The translations under genes and the position numbers were made by a program. From positions 46,066,001 through 46,130,000 of the forward strand of contig OZ320315.1 in NCBI GenBank assembly GCA_976226885.1: a stretch of DNA of 64,000 nucleotides, written 5' to 3'. Under the pieces are notes generated by a model. That model saw only the letters and a list, made by a program, of their open reading frames with translations, did no database searches and was not told the origin of the DNA. This document shows positions 22,916 to 32,700 of the stretch, piece by piece; within the stretch, counting starts at the first letter, position 1; each line of letters opens with the position of its first letter. Source of the stretch: Iphione sp. A-MEVVRFRX5. Taxonomy: Eukaryota.

Positions 22916-23552
22916 CATTCATTATTACATGTGTGGAAATATGTTCGTTTTTACATAAAACAGCTTACGTGATTCTTTCATATCACTTTTTGTGTACTTC
23001 TATGGAAAACGTGCTGTAACACTGTGAAGAATGGAACATGCCCCATTCTGAAAACATGGCATACACCCCACATACACATGGATTAGGTGTGTATATTTAT
23101 GTGTTCCAAAAAACACATTGAAAACATGATTGCACGCCTGTGAAAACATGGATGCATGGAAACCTAGCCCTAAGACCTCTTTCTCATTAGATGATAGATT
23201 CAGAATACATGTACATATTTAAGCTAGACCATAGTTAAAACTTGTAAAAAGTGCCTTTGCATATCACACTATAATGAGCCAACTGGCAGGTACACTTTAA
23301 AAGAAAAGGAAACATGACCACGAAATCAAGTATAAGACGTGCCTATGCATGACTCTTTATGCTTGGCTCTTTATACCAGTTTTCTTTTGATTCCATGTCT
23401 ATTAACCCTTTTCAGTACATTTTCAAAGTGTATTTGCGGCCAGATCCTCTGGGGGCTGTCACCTTCCAGTATTTACTATATTCAGTATATTGTCATTAGC
23501 AAACTATGTTCAGTGACAACACACAGTGGTTTTGTAAAATGTTTGGGCTATC

Positions 23553-23558
23553 TTTATT
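23553..23558 (-). terminator. Putative polyadenylation signal AATAAA downstream of YR
   Basis: AATAAA about 90 nt after the YR stop on the minus strand. Position only. Confidence 0.35.
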
Positions 23559-23649
23559 AATCACAGTCATCAATAAAATTTTCGTTTGTATACATATAAT
23601 GGTAAAATTAATAATTTAATTGTGAGTACATCGAGATATGCACCAAACT

Positions 23650-24609
23650 TTATTGATTAAGAGTGTCGACTAGAATTTTTGAAACCTGTGTAGCCTCTGC
23701 AGTTTTAACATAAGCTTGGAAAGCATTTGAGGCCCACGTACCGAAATGCTTTATTTGTAAGATGTCACAACCTTCCTGGTATGCAATCGTAGCTGCAGAC
23801 CTTCGGAGACTATGGAGAGATATTTTCTCCGGGTCTATCTGAGCTGCTAAGCACACTTCTCGAAATTTCTTGGTGAGATATACCGTTGTAACTGGGGTGA
23901 CCAAATCCCCCCAAGTTAACAATGGTTGTGCTGGACGGACAGTAGGAATGGACTGCAGCAACGATTGATACGCATGCACAGGGCATAAAATAGGATCATG
24001 GGATCCTGACAATACAATTTGTCTGTTCTGTGAATACAATTGTTGGGTTTTCGACCATTTTTGCTGCATTATTAATTTTCCATGTTTGACAGAAAAGTCG
24101 TCCCTCATTGGATGACGAGTAGGATCGAATGACGAAGTGGTACGAGGTGCCACTTCAGATTGTCGTAAACCAGCATAGAATATGAGCATAAGACCGAATC
24201 TGAGGATGAGAGCACATGGCTGAGAGAGAGTGGCATATAAAACACGCTTGATTTCGCCTGGATCAAGTGGTTGTTTCCTTGATATAACATGTTGTTTGGA
24301 GCGCTGAACCGCGTCCAATGCCAACTTCGCTTGCCTAGACATAAATCCCACATCGTCTCGACCATGTTCCCTCAAGAACTCACAAACAGCCGAAATAGCA
24401 TTCATGATAGAAGAAGGGCTGTTCATGAATTTCGTGAGGTATTGAATGTACATACACGCTTGGAGAGGGGTAGGCTGGAGTGGAGCCGCATTAAAGCGGA
24501 AACAGAAGGACAAATAGGTACGTGTCGCTGACCTGCGATTGGCCATGGTACCAGGCGCTCGTGCCCTAGCAACTAGCTCTTTTGCCTCCGCTGCCAGCCT
24601 CCGCTCCAC
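23650..24609 (-). CDS. Tyrosine recombinase of the DIRS-like element (319 aa from GTG; first ATG at 24546)
   Basis: Catalytic set intact: R in GLRQSE, K in KWSKT, HxxR in LHSLRRSAAT, W in GTWAS and Y in FQAYVK. The N-terminal APGT..N.....Y..FC region is typical of DIRS YRs. Confidence 0.92.
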   Translation of the reverse strand: MERRLAAEAKELVARARAPGTMANRRSATRTYLSFCFRFNAAPLQPTPLQACMYIQYLTKFMNSPSSIMNAISAVCEFLREHGRDDVGFMSRQAKLALDAVQRSKQHVISRKQPLDPGEIKRVLYATLSQPCALILRFGLMLIFYAGLRQSEVAPRTTSSFDPTRHPMRDDFSVKHGKLIMQQKWSKTQQLYSQNRQIVLSGSHDPILCPVHAYQSLLQSIPTVRPAQPLLTWGDLVTPVTTVYLTKKFREVCLAAQIDPEKISLHSLRRSAATIAYQEGCDILQIKHFGTWASNAFQAYVKTAEATQVSKILVDTLNQ

Positions 24610-24621
24610 TGGGTCTGTAAT

Positions 24622-25410
24622 TTACAATATAGGCCATAACAGTTTTTGATCCACTACAGGGTTCAACCTAGTTAGCCCTCCCTTAGAAATGAAATCGTGT
24701 GCTATGAAAGGGTATTTAGGGTGATCGTCCCATCTGGAGAGGGCATCGGCTAATACCATGTACTCCCCAGGGGTGTGTTCATACTCTAGCGTGAATTGTT
24801 GTTTTGCTTGGTGTAGCCAAAGGGATCTAGCACATCTCTGTAGTATTGGGTCCCTGGCCCTCCCAAATTTGTAGCTTTCTACTGCCGCCATGTTGTCACA
24901 GCGGATCTTAATTCTCTTGCCCTCATCCCTTTTACCAGTTAGGGTGACTACAGCGATTAGTAGGTTGACGCCCTCTACCTGGCTGATGTGGAGTCCTTCG
25001 CAGCAGTCAGGTATTTTGTGTGCATAGTAGTGCCTGTCATCAGCTGCTCCTATTCCACCCAGGGAGGCGTCTACCACTATTTCTCTGTCGACTACGATAT
25101 TCGGGATTATACCCACCCCATTCCAGGCTTCAAGATAATTGATGAACCACATCAGGTCCAACCTAGCATCATGATCTATGCGAATAAACCTCCCTTGCTG
25201 TTCCCTAAGGTTTTTTAACAGTCTGCCCAGGAAGACTCTAGCAGGAGGTACACACCGCGCCACCTGGAGGATCTTCCCGAGCAGGCTTTGGTAGTCATGG
25301 CGTGTTACTGACTTCTGCTTATAGACCTTGTGGACTATTTCTAGTATGTCTGTTAGCCTAGTCCATGGAATGGATACCGTCATCGCTTCTGTGTCTATGT
25401 CTATACCCAA
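24622..25410 (-). CDS. RT thumb plus RNase H (DIRS type), distal part of pol
   Basis: WLGIDIDT, LLGKILQVARCVPPARVFL, and RNase H acidic residues in VDASLGG, SQVEGVN, CDNMAAV and LADALSR. Confidence 0.9.
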   Translation of the reverse strand: MGIDIDTEAMTVSIPWTRLTDILEIVHKVYKQKSVTRHDYQSLLGKILQVARCVPPARVFLGRLLKNLREQQGRFIRIDHDARLDLMWFINYLEAWNGVGIIPNIVVDREIVVDASLGGIGAADDRHYYAHKIPDCCEGLHISQVEGVNLLIAVVTLTGKRDEGKRIKIRCDNMAAVESYKFGRARDPILQRCARSLWLHQAKQQFTLEYEHTPGEYMVLADALSRWDDHPKYPFIAHDFISKGGLTRLNPVVDQKLLWPIL

Positions 25411-26498
25411 CCAAGTGACCTTTGTATTTGGGTTTTGTGCCTTTCTTTTGCCTCTGGTAAGTTCAACTCACCAAACAGGTTACGGACTCTATCGAATGCA
25501 GCTATGGCTTTTTCTTCCGTGTCATTAACTCATATTGAGTCATCGAGATACATGTAGCCTACAATTCCTTCCTGCCTGATTATATGCATGATCACATCTG
25601 CGACCCGTTGCATGTGATTGGCTGAACATCTGGAGCCAAATGGGATAGTGGTATCAAAATAATACCGCTGATCCCACCTGAACCCCAGAAGCGGCCAATC
25701 CAATGGGCATGTAGGGAAATTTCTGTATGCCCTAGCTATATCAAGGGTTGCTAGGTACGGTTTATTTCCCATCTCCCTTATGCTTGTCATGAGTGCCTGA
25801 ATAGTAGGTAAGGAGTGGTCCCTCACGATTCCTAAGACCATATTCTTCCCTATGTATGCGTTGACCACCGCTTCTTCTGGGAAGGACATGTCCATAATCA
25901 CTCGTCTTTTATCGGGCTCCTTTTTGGGGCGTGTCATAAGAGGGGATGTATGGATCCAGGGATAGAAAGGAGGGCTACTGAACGGGCCATGGACTGCTCC
26001 TAATTCAATCTCCTTTTGTATGTAGTCTTGAATAGCCTGCGGGTGTTGGTTAGCAGAGGGATGATTATTCTGTTTCTGAGTTGGTAGAACTGGGCCCATA
26101 TACCCTAACGGGAAGCCATATGCTATTAGGTCTAATAGTTGTGTGTCATGGTATTTGTCTTGGAGATAATTGCGCCAAACGTGAATGTTAGTAATGCTTG
26201 GGACCTCAATGCGTGCCCCTAACAAGTTTGGTCTACCATCTTGTTTGACTAGGCTATAAATGTATGCAAGTGAGTGGTTGACCCTCGTTGCATCCACTGT
26301 CGGCCAGTTTTGTGCTTTATGGTGTGCTAATTGTTGGTAATTACATGCATGGACTATGTCACCATCGTCGTTTTTACAGATTGCACGGACAAGTTGAAAG
26401 TCTATACCAGGCGTACAGTCGTAATGGCCAAGTGATTGGCTATTCTCAGTCCTTGACTGGGCCTCCTCTACTCGTTTTTTGATGGTTGACGATTTTGA
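25411..26498 (-). pseudogene. Reverse transcriptase part of pol, with an in-frame TGA (25532-25530) and a 1-bp deletion (A-run 25444-25442)
   Basis: Motifs GFPLGY, RVIMDMS, LDIARAYRNF, PFGSRCSA and YLDD. After YLDDSI there is a TGA, then VNDTEEKAIAAFDRVRNLFGELNLPEAKE. One missing A shifts the frame into (K)AQNPNTKVTWLG. The frame is open upstream as far as the TAG at 26501-26499. Confidence 0.88.
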
Positions 26499-27718
26499 CT
26501 ATTATTGGCCTGGTAGTGCGATGCTCCGAATGTCTTACTCTGAAACTGCTGTGTAGTTTGCATGGCATTTTTCGAGTTTGAAGTGACCTTTGCTCTCTTA
26601 CCACATGCCACATTAGTGTGTGCATGTTTTGCACCGTTTAGTGCATAACGATACATGCACACATGTAAGAACCTGGTTTCCTGTTCAAGGTGAGATTCAG
26701 CCTTATGTGAACAGGAGCCCACGTTATACTGCGGACAAGGAACTTCCAGTACCTCAGCTGGGTTAACTGGAGCCATAGAGACCATTAAACGCTCATAAGC
26801 AATTTCATGTGAGCTAGACCAGCTGATTTCATTCCTCTCAATCATATCGAAAATGTTATTTGTCCACCTTCTAACATTCTTCCACGGGCGCCTCTGTGCG
26901 TCCTGTGTAATATGCAATAAGTGCTCAAGTACATAAGGTTTGTCTTGAATATGTATTGCAGTATCGTCTTTTAACATTGACAAATAAGATGGCAAAAATT
27001 CGCGATATGTCATACTCTCACGATACTCATTCTTTTGTTTGGGAGTGGTGATACCGTCCTTTTGGACGTACATGTGAGGTTTGGGAATCAAATTGCGGAT
27101 TCTCAAATCTACATTACCTCGAGTCTCGTTTGACTGTTGTAACCATGGAGCAGTTGCCTCTAGGAAGTTATCAATGTAATGTTGGACTGGGGCACCACTT
27201 CGAAGAGTAGAAGGCGGAGGTAGATATGCTGAGGAAGCTTGTTGTCGTCTTGGGAAGTAGGCAGTTGCTGGCTGCACGTGGGTCTGCGTTGGTTGCAACA
27301 GGTGTGTCTGAGGCCACGCCAGCGTTCCTTCGAGGTGCGTCGTCGGAGTTGTCAAACCGGTACTGCTTCGGACGTGTGGCGAAGGTGTGTGACTGGTAAC
27401 TGTCGTCGTAGTACCACGTTGTTGACCGGTAGGCACTGCGCTGACCCCAACGGACGTTTGGCTGGCCTGCTGGTGAACGGTCACGCCTGTGTTCTGCTGT
27501 CCTTCCGTATGTATTTCTCCGGAGGAAACGGCCTCTACAGGTGGCTGGGAGGTAGCAATGGAAGCTGTAAGAGACAAAATGTGAGACTTTAGTTGGGTGA
27601 TATCATCCATTGCCTTCTCTAGCCTTTCGAGGCGGTCGGTGACTTTCAATCTCGCAGCCTTTTCTTTTCCCGCAGCAGTTTTGCCTGGTGTGGCAGCCTT
27701 GTCAGCTGGTGCAGACAT
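26468..27718 (-). CDS. Gag-like ORF1 of the DIRS-like element (416 aa from MSAPADK)
   Basis: N-terminal coiled coil (DRLERLEKAMDDITQL), Thr/Gln/Pro-rich linker, conserved EHL..I.QDA...PWKNVRRW....IE....W block, and a C-terminal Cys/His knuckle CPQYNVGSC...HVCMYR...H...C. Confidence 0.82.
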   Translation of the reverse strand: MSAPADKAATPGKTAAGKEKAARLKVTDRLERLEKAMDDITQLKSHILSLTASIATSQPPVEAVSSGEIHTEGQQNTGVTVHQQASQTSVGVSAVPTGQQRGTTTTVTSHTPSPHVRSSTGLTTPTTHLEGTLAWPQTHLLQPTQTHVQPATAYFPRRQQASSAYLPPPSTLRSGAPVQHYIDNFLEATAPWLQQSNETRGNVDLRIRNLIPKPHMYVQKDGITTPKQKNEYRESMTYREFLPSYLSMLKDDTAIHIQDKPYVLEHLLHITQDAQRRPWKNVRRWTNNIFDMIERNEISWSSSHEIAYERLMVSMAPVNPAEVLEVPCPQYNVGSCSHKAESHLEQETRFLHVCMYRYALNGAKHAHTNVACGKRAKVTSNSKNAMQTTQQFQSKTFGASHYQANNSQNRQPSKNE

Positions 27719-27781
27719 CCTCGTAGTGCGGCTCTGTCGACAGCACACGACGAACAGAGGCAGAGGTACATGGCTGAAGGG

Positions 27782-27787
27782 TTTATA
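27782..27787 (-). promoter_or_regulatory. TATA box of the DIRS-like element
   Basis: GATATAAACCC about 65 nt upstream of the gag ATG (27718), followed by a pyrimidine-rich leader CTCTGCCTCTGTTCGTCG. Confidence 0.5.
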
Positions 27788-28679
27788 TCCAGGGCCCTGG
27801 TCACGGTTGGACAGGTTGCTAATGATTCGCCCTATTATACATGCCGTCCCATTTATTAGCTTGTAGATGTTGTAGGTATTATTCAGCCTCCTTAAATTCA
27901 TATCTATATTTTTACTTCTTTTTATGTTAATTTATTTACTTTTGTTATGCGATTGTTTTATACATAAAGCTGCTTGATCCATGTTTTTCGGATTAGATGA
28001 TCAAATGCTCAAAATGCATACTTTCTGTGATATTCATATATACTTGTAACCGGAATACCTCATGAACATCTTCATTCTTATCAATTAAGGGACTAGGATA
28101 GTATGCAGTATCAATCTCTGTTCTGGAGTTCTTTAATACTCTGAATACATTTGCTTTCAGACTTTCAAGAGAGAGAACAGAAAGGAGATGGTTGCACCGG
28201 TTACACCTACATTGTACATAACGTACACCTGTGTTATGTTAGGGTAAAATTTTCGTATCTATGTAACCACTGGAGCTATCCAACTTCATGTACATGTTTA
28301 CATGTGACTTGCAATGATTTCCTTTCGTTTCTTGTTTCGTAGAACCAATCTTGTTGGTTACAATGACCAATTAAAAGAACAAGAACAACTAATTTCATTG
28401 GTTGTACGATTTTGTACGATTAACTTCTTCCCAGAATTCTTTGCCAAACGAAACAGAGAACGGGTAAGCATCTGTAGCCAATATACTCATTCAACCCAGG
28501 AAAGCTACGTTTACAAACGGAAACTAGCAGTCCTACTGTGTAGTGGTGTGAGTTTTTGTTTGAATTTGATTTTTGAGTGTACATTAGCTGTGAAAAATAG
28601 TATTAGTACAGGGTGCCAAGGTGATTTTTTAATCAGTGGTACATACATTAGCACCCAGTAAGTTATGTGAAGAATGTCC

Positions 28680-29794
28680 GTAAACCTTTCTCGACGCTGG
28701 TTTATTCGACTTTTGCCTATTTTCAGTATAGAGAGCCAAAAATTTTTAGGGCAAGTGTTGAAGTGCCTGGCTATGGTGGTGTCTGATTTGGTATGTCAAA
28801 CTTGTGATTGCTAAACCTGTCACGTAAAGATTGTTAGGTTTGACCTATGTATTGGATGCCACATGCCGCACATGTGATAAGGTTTGCCAAATTGTTCCTC
28901 TGAGAGGATATTGTTTCATGAGTTTTGTTTGGACAGTTTAGGTATTTTACCCACACTTCCCCTGTTATATTGATTCTTGGACAGTTCATGTATTTATAGA
29001 TTAGTGGGCTCTTGCACTTGTTGATGGTGTTTGCAAGATTCTTCCTTGTTATTGGGGCACTAGTGATCTTAGCCCGTACTAGCATGTCTGACAGGTTTTT
29101 GTTTCATTTGAAGCCATGAATGACTTTATGTTGTGACAAAATTATGGCGAGTCGATTTAGTTTTTTTCTAGCAGTGGCCATTGTGCGTCTGTAGTCTTTC
29201 CTAGGTCTGGGTTGCCAAGGTCGTATAGGTGGTGACCACATGACACATCACTGGTGTCGCATTGATCTCTTCGGAAGGTCCATCAAGTAGTTCATTCCAG
29301 TCGAGTTTTAAAACATGTAGGGCAGCTTCCATGACAAGTTTGGTCAGGTAGCCATGTCCCAGCATATGTTTCCCCAATTTGGCCACGTGTAAAAAGAAGT
29401 CTTCAGGCCAGGTGCAGATGTGTCTGACCCAAACAAATTGTGAATACGGGATGGCATTCACACAGCTTCTTGGGTGACATGATTGGTATAGTAGATAGTT
29501 GTAAGTGTCAGTTGGTTTGGAGTACACAGCTATGTGTAGGTGTCCACTCTCGTTCGTAATGACTGTGGTATCTAGGAAATGGATTTCTCCATCTGAGTTT
29601 TCAAGGGTAAATTTTATGGTTTTATGTACAGAGTAGAGAGGGGAGTGGAATTTTAGAAGTTCAGCTTCCCCATGTGGCCACATTAAGAAGATGTCATCTA
29701 TGTAACTCAACCAAGTTGAGGGTTGCAGTGGGTGATTGTACACATGATCATCTTTAAATTTGCCCATGAATATATTGGTAAATGATTGGGCCAC
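28680..29794 (-). mobile_element. 5'-truncated, degenerate Penelope-like element (RT C-half plus GIY-YIG endonuclease)
   Basis: SFTNIFMG, WLSYIDDIFLMWPHG, IKFTLE..FLDTTV, VYSKPTD..YL.Y.SCHP and AIPYSQ, then a Cys linker and LITCAACGIQYIGQT*QSLRDRFSNH...ARHFN. Contains stops and frameshifts and begins abruptly near 29800. Confidence 0.9.
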
Positions 29795-32700
29795 ACGTCG
29801 TCTTTATTCCTCACATAACACAGGAAATATCAAAATGTACCTGATCTTTGACCTGAAACTATTTCCTAGTCCACCTAGTCATTTTGAAGACAGATTGAAG
29901 GCAAAATTAGTTTTCGTTCATACAAATACCATATTGCTATTAAAACTAAAGGCATTCGTTATCAAGAAATATGTGTGATTAGTGAAAGAAATCAAGTTTA
30001 ATTACAGACCAGGAATTACACTCAAAGAACTTCCAAATCAACACTGGTCCAAGTTAATGTCTATCCTGAGGAATATTTAAAACTCAAAGTAGAAGGCTAA
30101 TGCTTGAAGGTTTCGCTCAAATATTGTTTAAATCATTGTATATGTCTGTATGCGCATTGGCAGTTTGAAATCAAACTGAAAAATTACAGCGGAACCATCT
30201 AACCCTATGATATAAATGAATTTATAAAATGATATTGTAACACATGTACGTGTGTGTGAAAAAGATATAGCCATAAGCAAGCGTAGTAGTATTTTTTTCA
30301 GAAAAACAACTATAATATCTTATCGGCTATGTCATTACAGGAGGTCAAAACATGCTCTGATCGATCTTAGTATTCCTGCTCAGACTGCTTGGCTCTCCAA
30401 TGTCAAACAATAACACCTAATATGGTAATAATTAGGGGTGTAGGCTTACAATACAACCCCCCTGCCAAATACTTGGTCCTATATTTACGAATCTGATCCA
30501 TACGAATGGTAATAAATTTTGGTAGAAACGTGATTTACGACCCAGCGTAGAAGAAATGCGGACTGAGTGTCGGATATTGCCGGACATTCTTTCCATTAAG
30601 CGTAGCTTGTTTCGTTAATACACACAGCCCGCCCGCGCTTTTTGGCACCTTGGGTCTGATCAACCGTACCATGGGCGTTAATCAAACCTTGTGCTCACAG
30701 CAAGCTAACAGCGGGTGACATGGAAATCGCGTATAACTAATCTCTGCGAGCGCCAAGGCCTGTTGGGCTTAGTCAAGCTTCAAATGCTTCCTACTTGGAA
30801 ATATACATCCCCGAAAGTATGTTTATGTGGTTACAAATCTTCCCGAAGAAATAGTGCCAACTAAATTGGGATTGTACTTATCATTGCTGGTCAGTTACGT
30901 ATATTTACCATTACTTACACGTGCATCTAGAAGACTAATGTATTATTTGTCCACATAAATTTAACGCTGGTGAGTAAAAGATCAGTAGATATCATTAGAT
31001 TCATCTCGAAGGGTCTTTCACACCTGGTCAATTTCCGACAAATTCAACTGTGATATCTTTATTCCAAATTTAACAGTATCATCACACGCTCATTTAAATT
31101 TAACTGAAGCCCTGCTAGTGACACCTCTAGAAAATGACGAATTGTCTTTTTATCAAGGGAAGCACGATCTATTAAATAGTCCAACACGTACCATCCTTTT
31201 CTGATACGGAATTACGATAGTTTCTTAATATCATAGGACACTGGACGTCCAAGGCAGAACAGGCATTTTGCTGGTGGTTAGAGATGACCGCATATATCAC
31301 ACGTTTATTCAGAGCTGGAAATGTAAGCCTATAAAAATGTACGAGATAAAGGCCTGAAGCAAGAATGATTAGTCTCTGGTTTTGATGCACTCCCAATGCA
31401 GAAGACGAACGGGTGTCTTGCTGTCTTTCTTCTTTTTGTTGAAGGACATTGAACAAAGAACTGTTCGCTACGTGCATACATTTCACTTTTCAAAACTATG
31501 TATTCATTATTTTGGAAAATAGAGGGTGGCTCATTGAACAGGCTCATATCGGAGTAATCTGATTTTGCATGAAAATCGTAACCGGCTGACGGATAGTACT
31601 CACGAAAATGTTCAATGAATTTTGTTATTTTTTGTATCTAAATGATATTGACCAGTGTCCATTTAATACATATATTTAATTCTTTGCCAGAAGACTGAAA
31701 GGATTTTCAGTGAATCAACATTAAAACCATACGTTGTGCTATCGTGCTATATCAGTGGCGTGACCATGAATGGCATTTTGACCCTCATGCCATCCAAACA
31801 CTTGTATAAACATTCTTGAACCAAAAGAAAAAAGCACTTCAACTTGCGACCTCCACATTATAGAAATATAAAATTTAACCTGCTTTAAATCGTGTAAAAG
31901 AATCCAAAAGCGATGACATGAGGGGGAAAGGCCTCTAAGACATATGCAAATGCGATATTCTTATTCATCGAAGCAGCTCAAACAGTCTTTCCATCAATTC
32001 CAACAGTTCGGAAGCATTGATCGTGCTGCATTTGGTAGCCTTTTCACTGCTTTTTATTGAAGCCTGTTCATCTCTGTGATCTAAGAGGCTTATTGTAAGC
32101 CAGTCGAAATGGGCTAGACGAAAGCTTTAATCCACAAGTACGAAAGTTGCGTCGACCCCAGTGCATGAACGGTAAGTCAAAACAGGACGCACTTATTATC
32201 CATAGTATTGTTGGCCATGCAGTGCATATTCCTGGCAGTACTTGTTATATTTGGCCTGGACTGCAGGACGTGGCTTTTAGCTGGCATTGGCCACATTTGG
32301 CGCCGAGTCAATGGTTTGACGACCCCAATGTAGTGAGCAATTAATGCAACTATAATATTGAACAGCTGGTAGCTGTGCCATAGGAAGTTTGTTCGGTGCA
32401 GCTGTACGACCTGGAGGCCTTCGGCATGTACCATACAGTCCCTCCGGCCACACATTGAAGCTTATCTATGCCCAGTTGACTGAGAAAACATAGCCAGAGT
32501 CTAACACATAATTGTGAACGGGATATAGAGGTGAATATGTAAGAAACGGGTAGCTATACGGATCCGGCTTCACTTCGACTTCAGTTCCTGGCTGATATTA
32601 TTTCTAGACGTATAGCCTTTCCCATCCCCCGTCACCCCGGAGTCGGGACTCGGAGTTGTGTTTTGGAGACGTCGGTGCAGGAATGAAGAGACCATAAATG

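Follow-up and report, generated by a model that had tools for sequence, protein, structure and literature searches.

A candidate -1 frameshift signal conserved at the gag/pol junction of Ngaro-like retrotransposons in an Iphione genome

How does a retrotransposon produce a polymerase whose reading frame opens without a start codon? This question is raised by an element on the minus strand of a 64,000-nucleotide (nt) stretch from Iphione sp. A-MEVVRFRX5 (GCA_976226885.1, contig OZ320315.1, positions 46,066,001 to 46,130,000). We refer to the whole stretch as the window and count positions from its first letter. The element carries gag, a pol with a reverse transcriptase (RT) region and an RNase H-like (RH) region, and a tyrosine recombinase (YR). 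A preliminary description had proposed that its Gag and Pol are joined by a programmed -1 ribosomal frameshift. Based on a comparison with relatives, we consider it highly probable that the heptamer A_AAA_AAC at 26474..26480 is a conserved -1 frameshift signal at the gag/pol junction that yields Gag-Pol, and all sequence tests of that proposal agreed with it. It is also likely that two routes operate together, with Gag-Pol arising by -1 slippage and a fusion of the N-terminal part of Gag to the recombinase, Gag(N)-YR, arising by splicing.

Heptamer and reading frames at the gag/pol junction

In the window copy, the first open reading frame (ORF), labelled gag by position only, spans 26468..27718 and encodes 416 amino acids (aa) from the ATG that matches relatives. 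The pol frame (24622..26498) lies in -1 relative to gag, opening after a TAG at 26501-26499. Gag ends with a TAG at 26470-26468, leaving an overlap of 28 nt. Within this overlap the heptamer, with C before it and GA after it, is in the gag phase (TCA AAA AAC GAG TAG), and the gag stop codon follows 3 nt past it. By our own arithmetic, an in-phase X_XXY_YYZ would be expected by chance in about 0.6% of overlaps of this length (about 8 positions). The first ATG of the pol frame is at 26099, codon 134, directly after the GFPLGY block. The preliminary description had located the frames, the overlap and the heptamer correctly, and had rightly reported some 130 codons of pol without an ATG.

We searched the genome of the window itself (1.18 Gb) at the protein level, scored the best 124 of 5,432 candidates and took 8 kb around each of the 123 loci other than the window copy. 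These 124 loci form 109 clusters at 80% nucleotide identity, and the 93 representatives used below share 38-82% of their Pol residues (median 49%). A second set of 23 further loci was chosen via the recombinase. AAAAAAC was the best-matching site near the expected position in 115 of the 124 loci, 111 of which had it in the pol phase, and it was present in 102 of the 109 clusters. A canonical heptamer that is in phase and open into pol was found in 106 of the 124 loci, and the gag stop codon occupies the same +3 position in 93 of 121. The heptamer conservation that the preliminary description had proposed to test was thus found. The short overlap is incidental and ranges from 19 to 274 nt in relatives, with one outlier of 1,111 nt.

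Because the count of 115 came from a motif-guided search, it was repeated without guidance from the heptamer. A long ORF precedes pol in 91 loci (33 have none), and pol lies in the -1 frame in 88 of these, in the same frame in two and in +1 in one, all three exceptions being broken copies. Gag, pol and YR are all open in 52 loci; here pol is in -1 in 52/52, behind AAAAAAC in 51 and TAAAAAC in one. Among the recombinase-picked loci, 17 of 23 keep the junction and AAAAAAC is found in 15 of those 17. No intact copy has a continuous gag-pol frame, and the two same-frame cases belong to the broken copies mentioned above.

The nucleotides around the heptamer are also nearly fixed, with C before it in 115 of 121 loci, G after it in 117 of 121 and then A in 121 of 121. 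As a result, the first codon in the -1 frame is almost always CGA. Two loci, L048 and L121, have one extra A in the heptamer run; in L048 this makes gag-pol continuous, and its pol is broken further on.

A synonymous-codon control was made on 81 aligned gags, in which 51 columns hold one amino acid in at least 90% of the sequences. The only codon-fixed columns among them are the heptamer Lys (AAA, 99%), the heptamer Asn (AAC, 99%) and the Gly of a predicted splice donor discussed below (GGT, 100%), and codon identity in the remaining 48 reaches at most 69%. Of 42 Lys-Asn pairs elsewhere in gag, 1 is spelled AAAAAAC. Among 19,668 in-phase positions of the relatives' gag, taken from its 3' 900 nt, 14 show an X_XXY_YYZ, one of them AAAAAAC.

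These data bear on the idea that Pol is started independently, by re-initiation after the gag stop, leaky scanning or a non-AUG codon, while the conserved sequence serves as a Gag C-terminal motif or as an RNA signal for packaging or priming. Gag does mostly end in K-N-E/D-stop, the stem described below could have other roles, and in 42 of the 92 scorable representatives the open pol frame offers an ATG ahead of its first conserved motif. However, a protein motif gives no reason for AAA, AAC and the wobble A in front of them to be fixed, and an RNA signal would not require pol to be in -1 in every intact copy. The remaining 50 of 92 have no ATG before the conserved Pol residues, and the position of the first pol ATG in relatives is scattered from -289 to +187 codons. 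We regard an independent start of Pol as highly improbable, and frameshifting at the heptamer as the better account of the junction.

RNA structure past the heptamer

The preliminary description had named two small hairpins within 26427..26459, CAGUC-AAG-GACUG (26459-26447) and GCCAA-UCAC-UUGGC (26440-26427), as the structure behind the slip site. Both sequences are present as written, and both are minor folds. We rejected them as the stimulator, with pair probabilities of about 0.2 and a fold no better than chance (z-score of -0.05 against shuffled sequences for the 94 nt past the heptamer). Together they reach -10.3 kcal/mol, compared with -12.3 kcal/mol for the minimum-energy fold; the first begins 14 nt past the heptamer and the second competes with a basal helix. 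In a 60-nt fold of the window copy, this basal helix, GGCC at 26463-26460 paired with GGCC at 26429-26426, has a pair probability of 0.79. It marks a predicted stimulatory stem (26423..26466) that is weak in this copy, with a basal helix of 4 base pairs (bp) that starts 10 nt past the heptamer; a GG/UU extension would bring the spacer to 7 nt, at a pair probability of 0.25-0.31.

The family as a whole gives a clearer picture. Over 70 nt starting 5 nt past the heptamer, the 93 representatives have a mean folding z-score of -1.45, and nine control windows give -0.06 to +0.40. In 46 of 93 representatives the longest helix is separated from the heptamer by a spacer of 7 or 8 nt, and in 61 of 93 by one of 5-9 nt. 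In an arm-swap test, duplexes between a copy's own arms averaged -15.0 kcal/mol, compared with -10.5 kcal/mol for swapped partners, and no such gap was found at three control positions. In addition, 75 stems use 64 different arm pairs. The arms of the downstream stem thus co-vary across the family, a property that the preliminary description had proposed to check, in a stem that differs from the two hairpins it named. A simple swap test for a pseudoknot, pairing the loop with downstream sequence in 70 representatives, gave no signal (-3.30 for own and -3.15 for swapped partners). The stimulator looks like a predicted family-wide stem, mostly 7-8 nt past the heptamer, with a large and variable loop.

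A predicted splice to the recombinase

The YR ORF of the window copy (23650..24615) is open, encodes 321 aa from a split Asp codon and matches Phage_integrase (E 9.5e-7). It has no conserved start codon in the family. YR conservation begins at the codon of a predicted splice acceptor, and invariant residues precede the commonest first Met. In the window copy the acceptor, TTACAG/A, directly follows the pol stop codon (TAA, 24624-24622; both lie within 24615..24624), and 24615 would be the last position of the intron. In 78 of 81 loci, a YAG in YR phase 1, behind a T-rich tract, is the first AG to follow the pol stop, and the acceptor scores 10.7 in the window copy against a family median of 10.9.

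The matching predicted donor lies in gag at 27113..27119 (AG/GTAAT, phase 1 in the gag frame), and the intron would start at 27117. This is the codon-fixed Gly column described above. GGT is found in 81 of 81 open gags and is followed by AAY, and the codon in front of it has A as its last base in all 81, with five codons for four amino acids in use there. Four other Gly columns of gag use all four codons. AGGTAAY was found in 115 of 124 loci compared with 0-9 in six control windows. In the Gag model, the donor lies within a linker predicted with low confidence (predicted local distance difference test score, pLDDT, below 50). The donor and acceptor phases match in 61 of the 61 loci scored, and the predicted introns measure 2,468-2,656 nt, with GT...AG ends, a consensus donor and a pyrimidine-rich acceptor. 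We therefore consider it very likely, from these sequence features, that YR is spliced onto the N-terminal part of Gag.

An alternative route has been proposed in print. According to the section of PMC13003380 consulted (2.7), Poulter and Butler 2015 suggested a frameshift into the YR ORF of Ngaro elements, and one could suppose that Gag-Pol is made by -1 frameshifting and YR is then reached by a second frameshift or by read-through at the pol/YR boundary. The window copy has YR in frame behind the pol TAA, and -1 is the commonest relation in the family, with YR in frame 0, -1 and +1 relative to pol in 39, 50 and 31 of 120 loci. However, all three relations also occur among copies with an open pol (29, 33 and 22), so that no single recoding event fits, and the spacer between the pol stop and the YR start varies in length. 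An invariant YAG at a fixed YR phase behind a T-rich tract, and a matching invariant donor in gag, also speak against this route. Read-through of the pol TAA was rejected, and this alternative as a whole is very unlikely.

The presence of real-looking splice signals in the element might also suggest that Pol itself is made by splicing from the gag donor to an acceptor at the junction. Near the junction, 8 of 93 representatives have an acceptor-like site scoring at least 8, a share like that of control windows (6-10 of 93), whereas 52 of 61 YR acceptor sites reach that score under a matrix that was trained on those same YR acceptors. The spliced pol mRNA that the preliminary description had named as a refutation thus has no acceptor signal behind it. 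A related possibility is slippage of the polymerase on the A run, as the extra A that puts gag and pol in frame in the broken copy L048 might suggest. The run has only six A, bounded on its 5' side by the near-fixed C, and polymerase slippage would presumably need no stem at ribosome spacing. Both variants are most improbable, and ribosomal frameshifting remains our explanation for Pol.

In the proposed mechanism, one RNA would give rise to three proteins. Most ribosomes would stop 3 nt past the heptamer and release Gag (416 aa in the window copy). A minority, paused by the predicted stem, would slip from A_AAA_AAC to AAA_AAA_C and continue in the pol frame, giving a Gag-Pol of about 1,030 aa in intact copies with the junction ...PSKN-RVEE..., or with K replacing N. 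Splicing would remove about 2.5 kb (27117-24615 in the window copy) and leave the recombinase, with its 321 aa, fused to some 200 aa of Gag. Slippage and its rate, the splice and each of these products are predictions from sequence.

Several points weigh against this account. No slippage, transcript or peptide has been observed. All loci come from one genome, as the best-scoring fraction of a much larger candidate set, and so are not independent of shared ancestry. Eighteen of the 124 loci fail the strict junction test, none of which passes the test for three open frames, and many representatives have the early pol ATG described above. The folding z-score is below -1.5 in only 45% of representatives, and 9 of 93 have no helix of at least 5 bp. 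The window copy, which folds no better than its shuffles past the heptamer, has a z-score of -0.4 against the representatives' mean of -1.45 and ranks 45 of 92 in the arm-swap test; its weak stem may reflect decay. Finally, no spliced genomic copy was found in a pattern search, whose 5 hits were 4 ordinary unspliced elements and 1 unrelated sequence.

Other searches around the recombinase gave further observations. Gag was joined to YR in none of the 23 further YR loci. An internal deletion in L172 was considered as a splice and rejected because the GT is retained. A protein-collection search with YR returned 13 proteins, whose lengths of 194-344 aa are all too short for a Gag-YR fusion (5 of the 13 were viewed). 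L171 (G000:C10:46553923-46560223) is a derivative that matches neither gag nor RT: almost directly behind a promoter region resembling repeat A come the pol end, the acceptor and an open ORF for the recombinase.

We also found a second donor-like motif, GGTRAG, 20-100 nt past the heptamer in 41 of 93 representatives (for example L055, L084 and L136); nine other windows have it in 0-9. In one clade the motif makes up the 3' arm of the frameshift stem. It is clustered on the tree and is absent from the 15-member clade that holds the window copy. Its phases in pol are 1 in 16 cases and 0 in 17, and never 2, which would place a stop in the pol frame. As an addition to the mechanism above, this site might also be used as a donor in other clades, giving a Gag-recombinase via a frameshifted ribosome or a pol-less gag mRNA. 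The enrichment and its place in the stem speak for such use, whereas its absence from the clade of the window copy, the fact that only phase 1 fits YR and the ability of stem pairing alone to preserve part of GGTRAG speak against it, and we consider it rather doubtful.

More broadly, and tentatively, animal Ngaro elements may run a full retrovirus-like programme on one RNA, yielding Gag, a Gag-Pol through -1 frameshifting and, through splicing, a Gag(N)-recombinase that would take the integrating enzyme along into the particle. This would stand in place of the frameshift into the recombinase that has been suggested in print. In many clades the stem would also hold the second donor, and one fold could govern both slippage and splicing.

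The window copy, its family and known systems

The window copy is dead. A TGA at 25532-25530 interrupts its pol, whose frame is also broken between 25467 and 25404, and these lesions make production of a full Pol impossible. Its pol comprises an N-terminal conserved region, an RT (RVT_1, E 6e-8) and an end that we take to be RNase H from its motifs, without a Pfam hit. Upstream of gag, a remnant of the 5' split-direct-repeat unit A1 (27780..27855) shares 74-81% identity with the A repeats of L039, L040, L041, L042, L043, L045 and L047 and contains TATAAA at 27787-27782. Past the recombinase lies one 3' repeat unit B (23493..23645, ends approximate), which resembles, by eye, the B unit of L040. 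Relatives have a second A and a second B that are missing here, and no direct repeat or terminal repeat pair survives in the window. The apparent retention of A1 and a single B is what recombination between the two B units would presumably leave. Fragments of another reverse-transcriptase element lie upstream on the same strand (28511-29803), with ORFs that are presumably Penelope-like by their motifs, without Pfam support.

Gag has a conserved N-terminal segment, a low-complexity linker, a helical domain and a Cys/His-rich end. Pfam gave no hit on gag. In a structural model of 26564-27238, the conserved part, with the helical domain and the Cys/His-rich end, reaches a pLDDT of 78. The best fold match among 48,161 chains, at a Z of 5.0, was not a clear one, no viral match fell below E 1, and protein-collection searches with Gag returned nothing at near or longer lengths.

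In the family, 94 of 124 loci have both direct repeats, which are arranged as A...B A B in 90; the median identities of the two repeats are 98.6% and 99.5%. Many lineages have moved recently, since terminal repeats are about 99% identical and three frames are open in 52 copies. The family is very diverse and low in copy number, with nearly as many clusters as loci, and the three intact lineages tested consist of two copies each. Terminal inverted repeats were found in 0 of 124 loci. Pol ends 29-36 aa past the AD.LSR motif in 61 open copies and thus has no room for a methyltransferase; Pfam detected RVT_1 only in two intact Pols. Two metagenome scans for relatives beyond this genome gave 68 and 207 pattern hits, none of which was confirmed, and a viral scan gave a single weak 32-aa match that was not used.

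The preliminary description had spoken of a DIRS-group element. It is a tyrosine-recombinase retrotransposon of the order DIRS, and by its split direct repeats and lack of a methyltransferase it appears to be Ngaro-like and not DIRS1-like. Membership in the DIRS1-like group, which shares gag, RT/RH and the tyrosine recombinase (PMC3266345, in part), was rejected: the window family has neither the inverted terminal repeats that, with an internal complementary region, mark that group nor a methyltransferase, and also lacks a long pol/YR overlap. Split direct repeats are common to PAT-like elements, Ngaro and the window family according to the same partial source, and the absence of a methyltransferase favours Ngaro over PAT-like.

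The excerpts of PMC3783388, PMC3266345 and PMC9210276 consulted describe Ngaro elements that resemble the family in the order gag, RT/RH, YR, in the A...B A B repeats and in lacking a methyltransferase region; fungal Ngaro likewise have YR in frame or shifted relative to RT-RH (PMC3783388). The assignment rests on repeat layout and domain content by the definitions in PMC3266345 and PMC3783388, since our tree is a quick version holding only copies of this genome and no named references. Unlike in Ngaro, no hydrolase ORF was found in the two intact copies listed. The proposal quoted in the part of PMC13003380 consulted places a frameshift at the recombinase, whereas the window family has its signal at gag/pol and a YR that looks spliced. 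The remark in the preliminary description that such a route is little documented therefore needs qualifying: a frameshift proposal for Ngaro exists in print, although it concerns the recombinase ORF.

Full-text literature searches turned up no report of a slip site at gag/pol, or of a splice from Gag to YR, in YR retrotransposons, and neither did the searched portions of PMC8547959, PMC3783388, PMC6681497, PMC3266345, PMC5405496, PMC9210276, PMC7192593, PMC4157794, PMC2632668, PMC9341512, PMC8556966, PMC9940879, PMC5009743 and bioRxiv 2021.01.25.428050; Goodwin and Poulter 2004, Poulter and Butler 2015 and the Repbase notes may already mention a gag/pol frameshift. Within that literature, how tyrosine-recombinase retrotransposons make their start-less Pol and their recombinase has so far only been guessed at. 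Our analysis offers exact sites, a slip site and a splice pair, each nucleotide-fixed across about 100 diverged lineages. What is new is the documented conservation of a frameshift signal in the order DIRS, and its pairing with a predicted splice that contradicts the route in print. In addition, dozens of natural stem variants behind one identical heptamer form a panel for work on frameshift efficiency.

Gag-Pol frameshifting is textbook knowledge for retroviruses and long terminal repeat (LTR) elements, and the gag-pro heptamer of mouse mammary tumour virus is A_AAA_AAC. The excerpt of PMC5009743 consulted lists A_AAA_AAC among the most shift-prone heptamers in mammalian ribosomes, gives spacers of 5-9 nt for -1 signals and finds pol in -1 in 28 of 51 animal LTR elements. 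The window family resembles retroviruses and the animal Ty3/gypsy elements of that source in its X_XXY_YYZ heptamer, in a pol in the -1 frame and in a 3' structure at a spacer of 5-9 nt in most copies. It differs from them in that a tyrosine recombinase replaces the DDE integrase, split direct repeats stand where they have LTRs, and the predicted stem has a large variable loop and no pseudoknot signal in the simple swap test. Where a retrovirus makes Env as its third, spliced product, these elements would make a Gag-fused recombinase.

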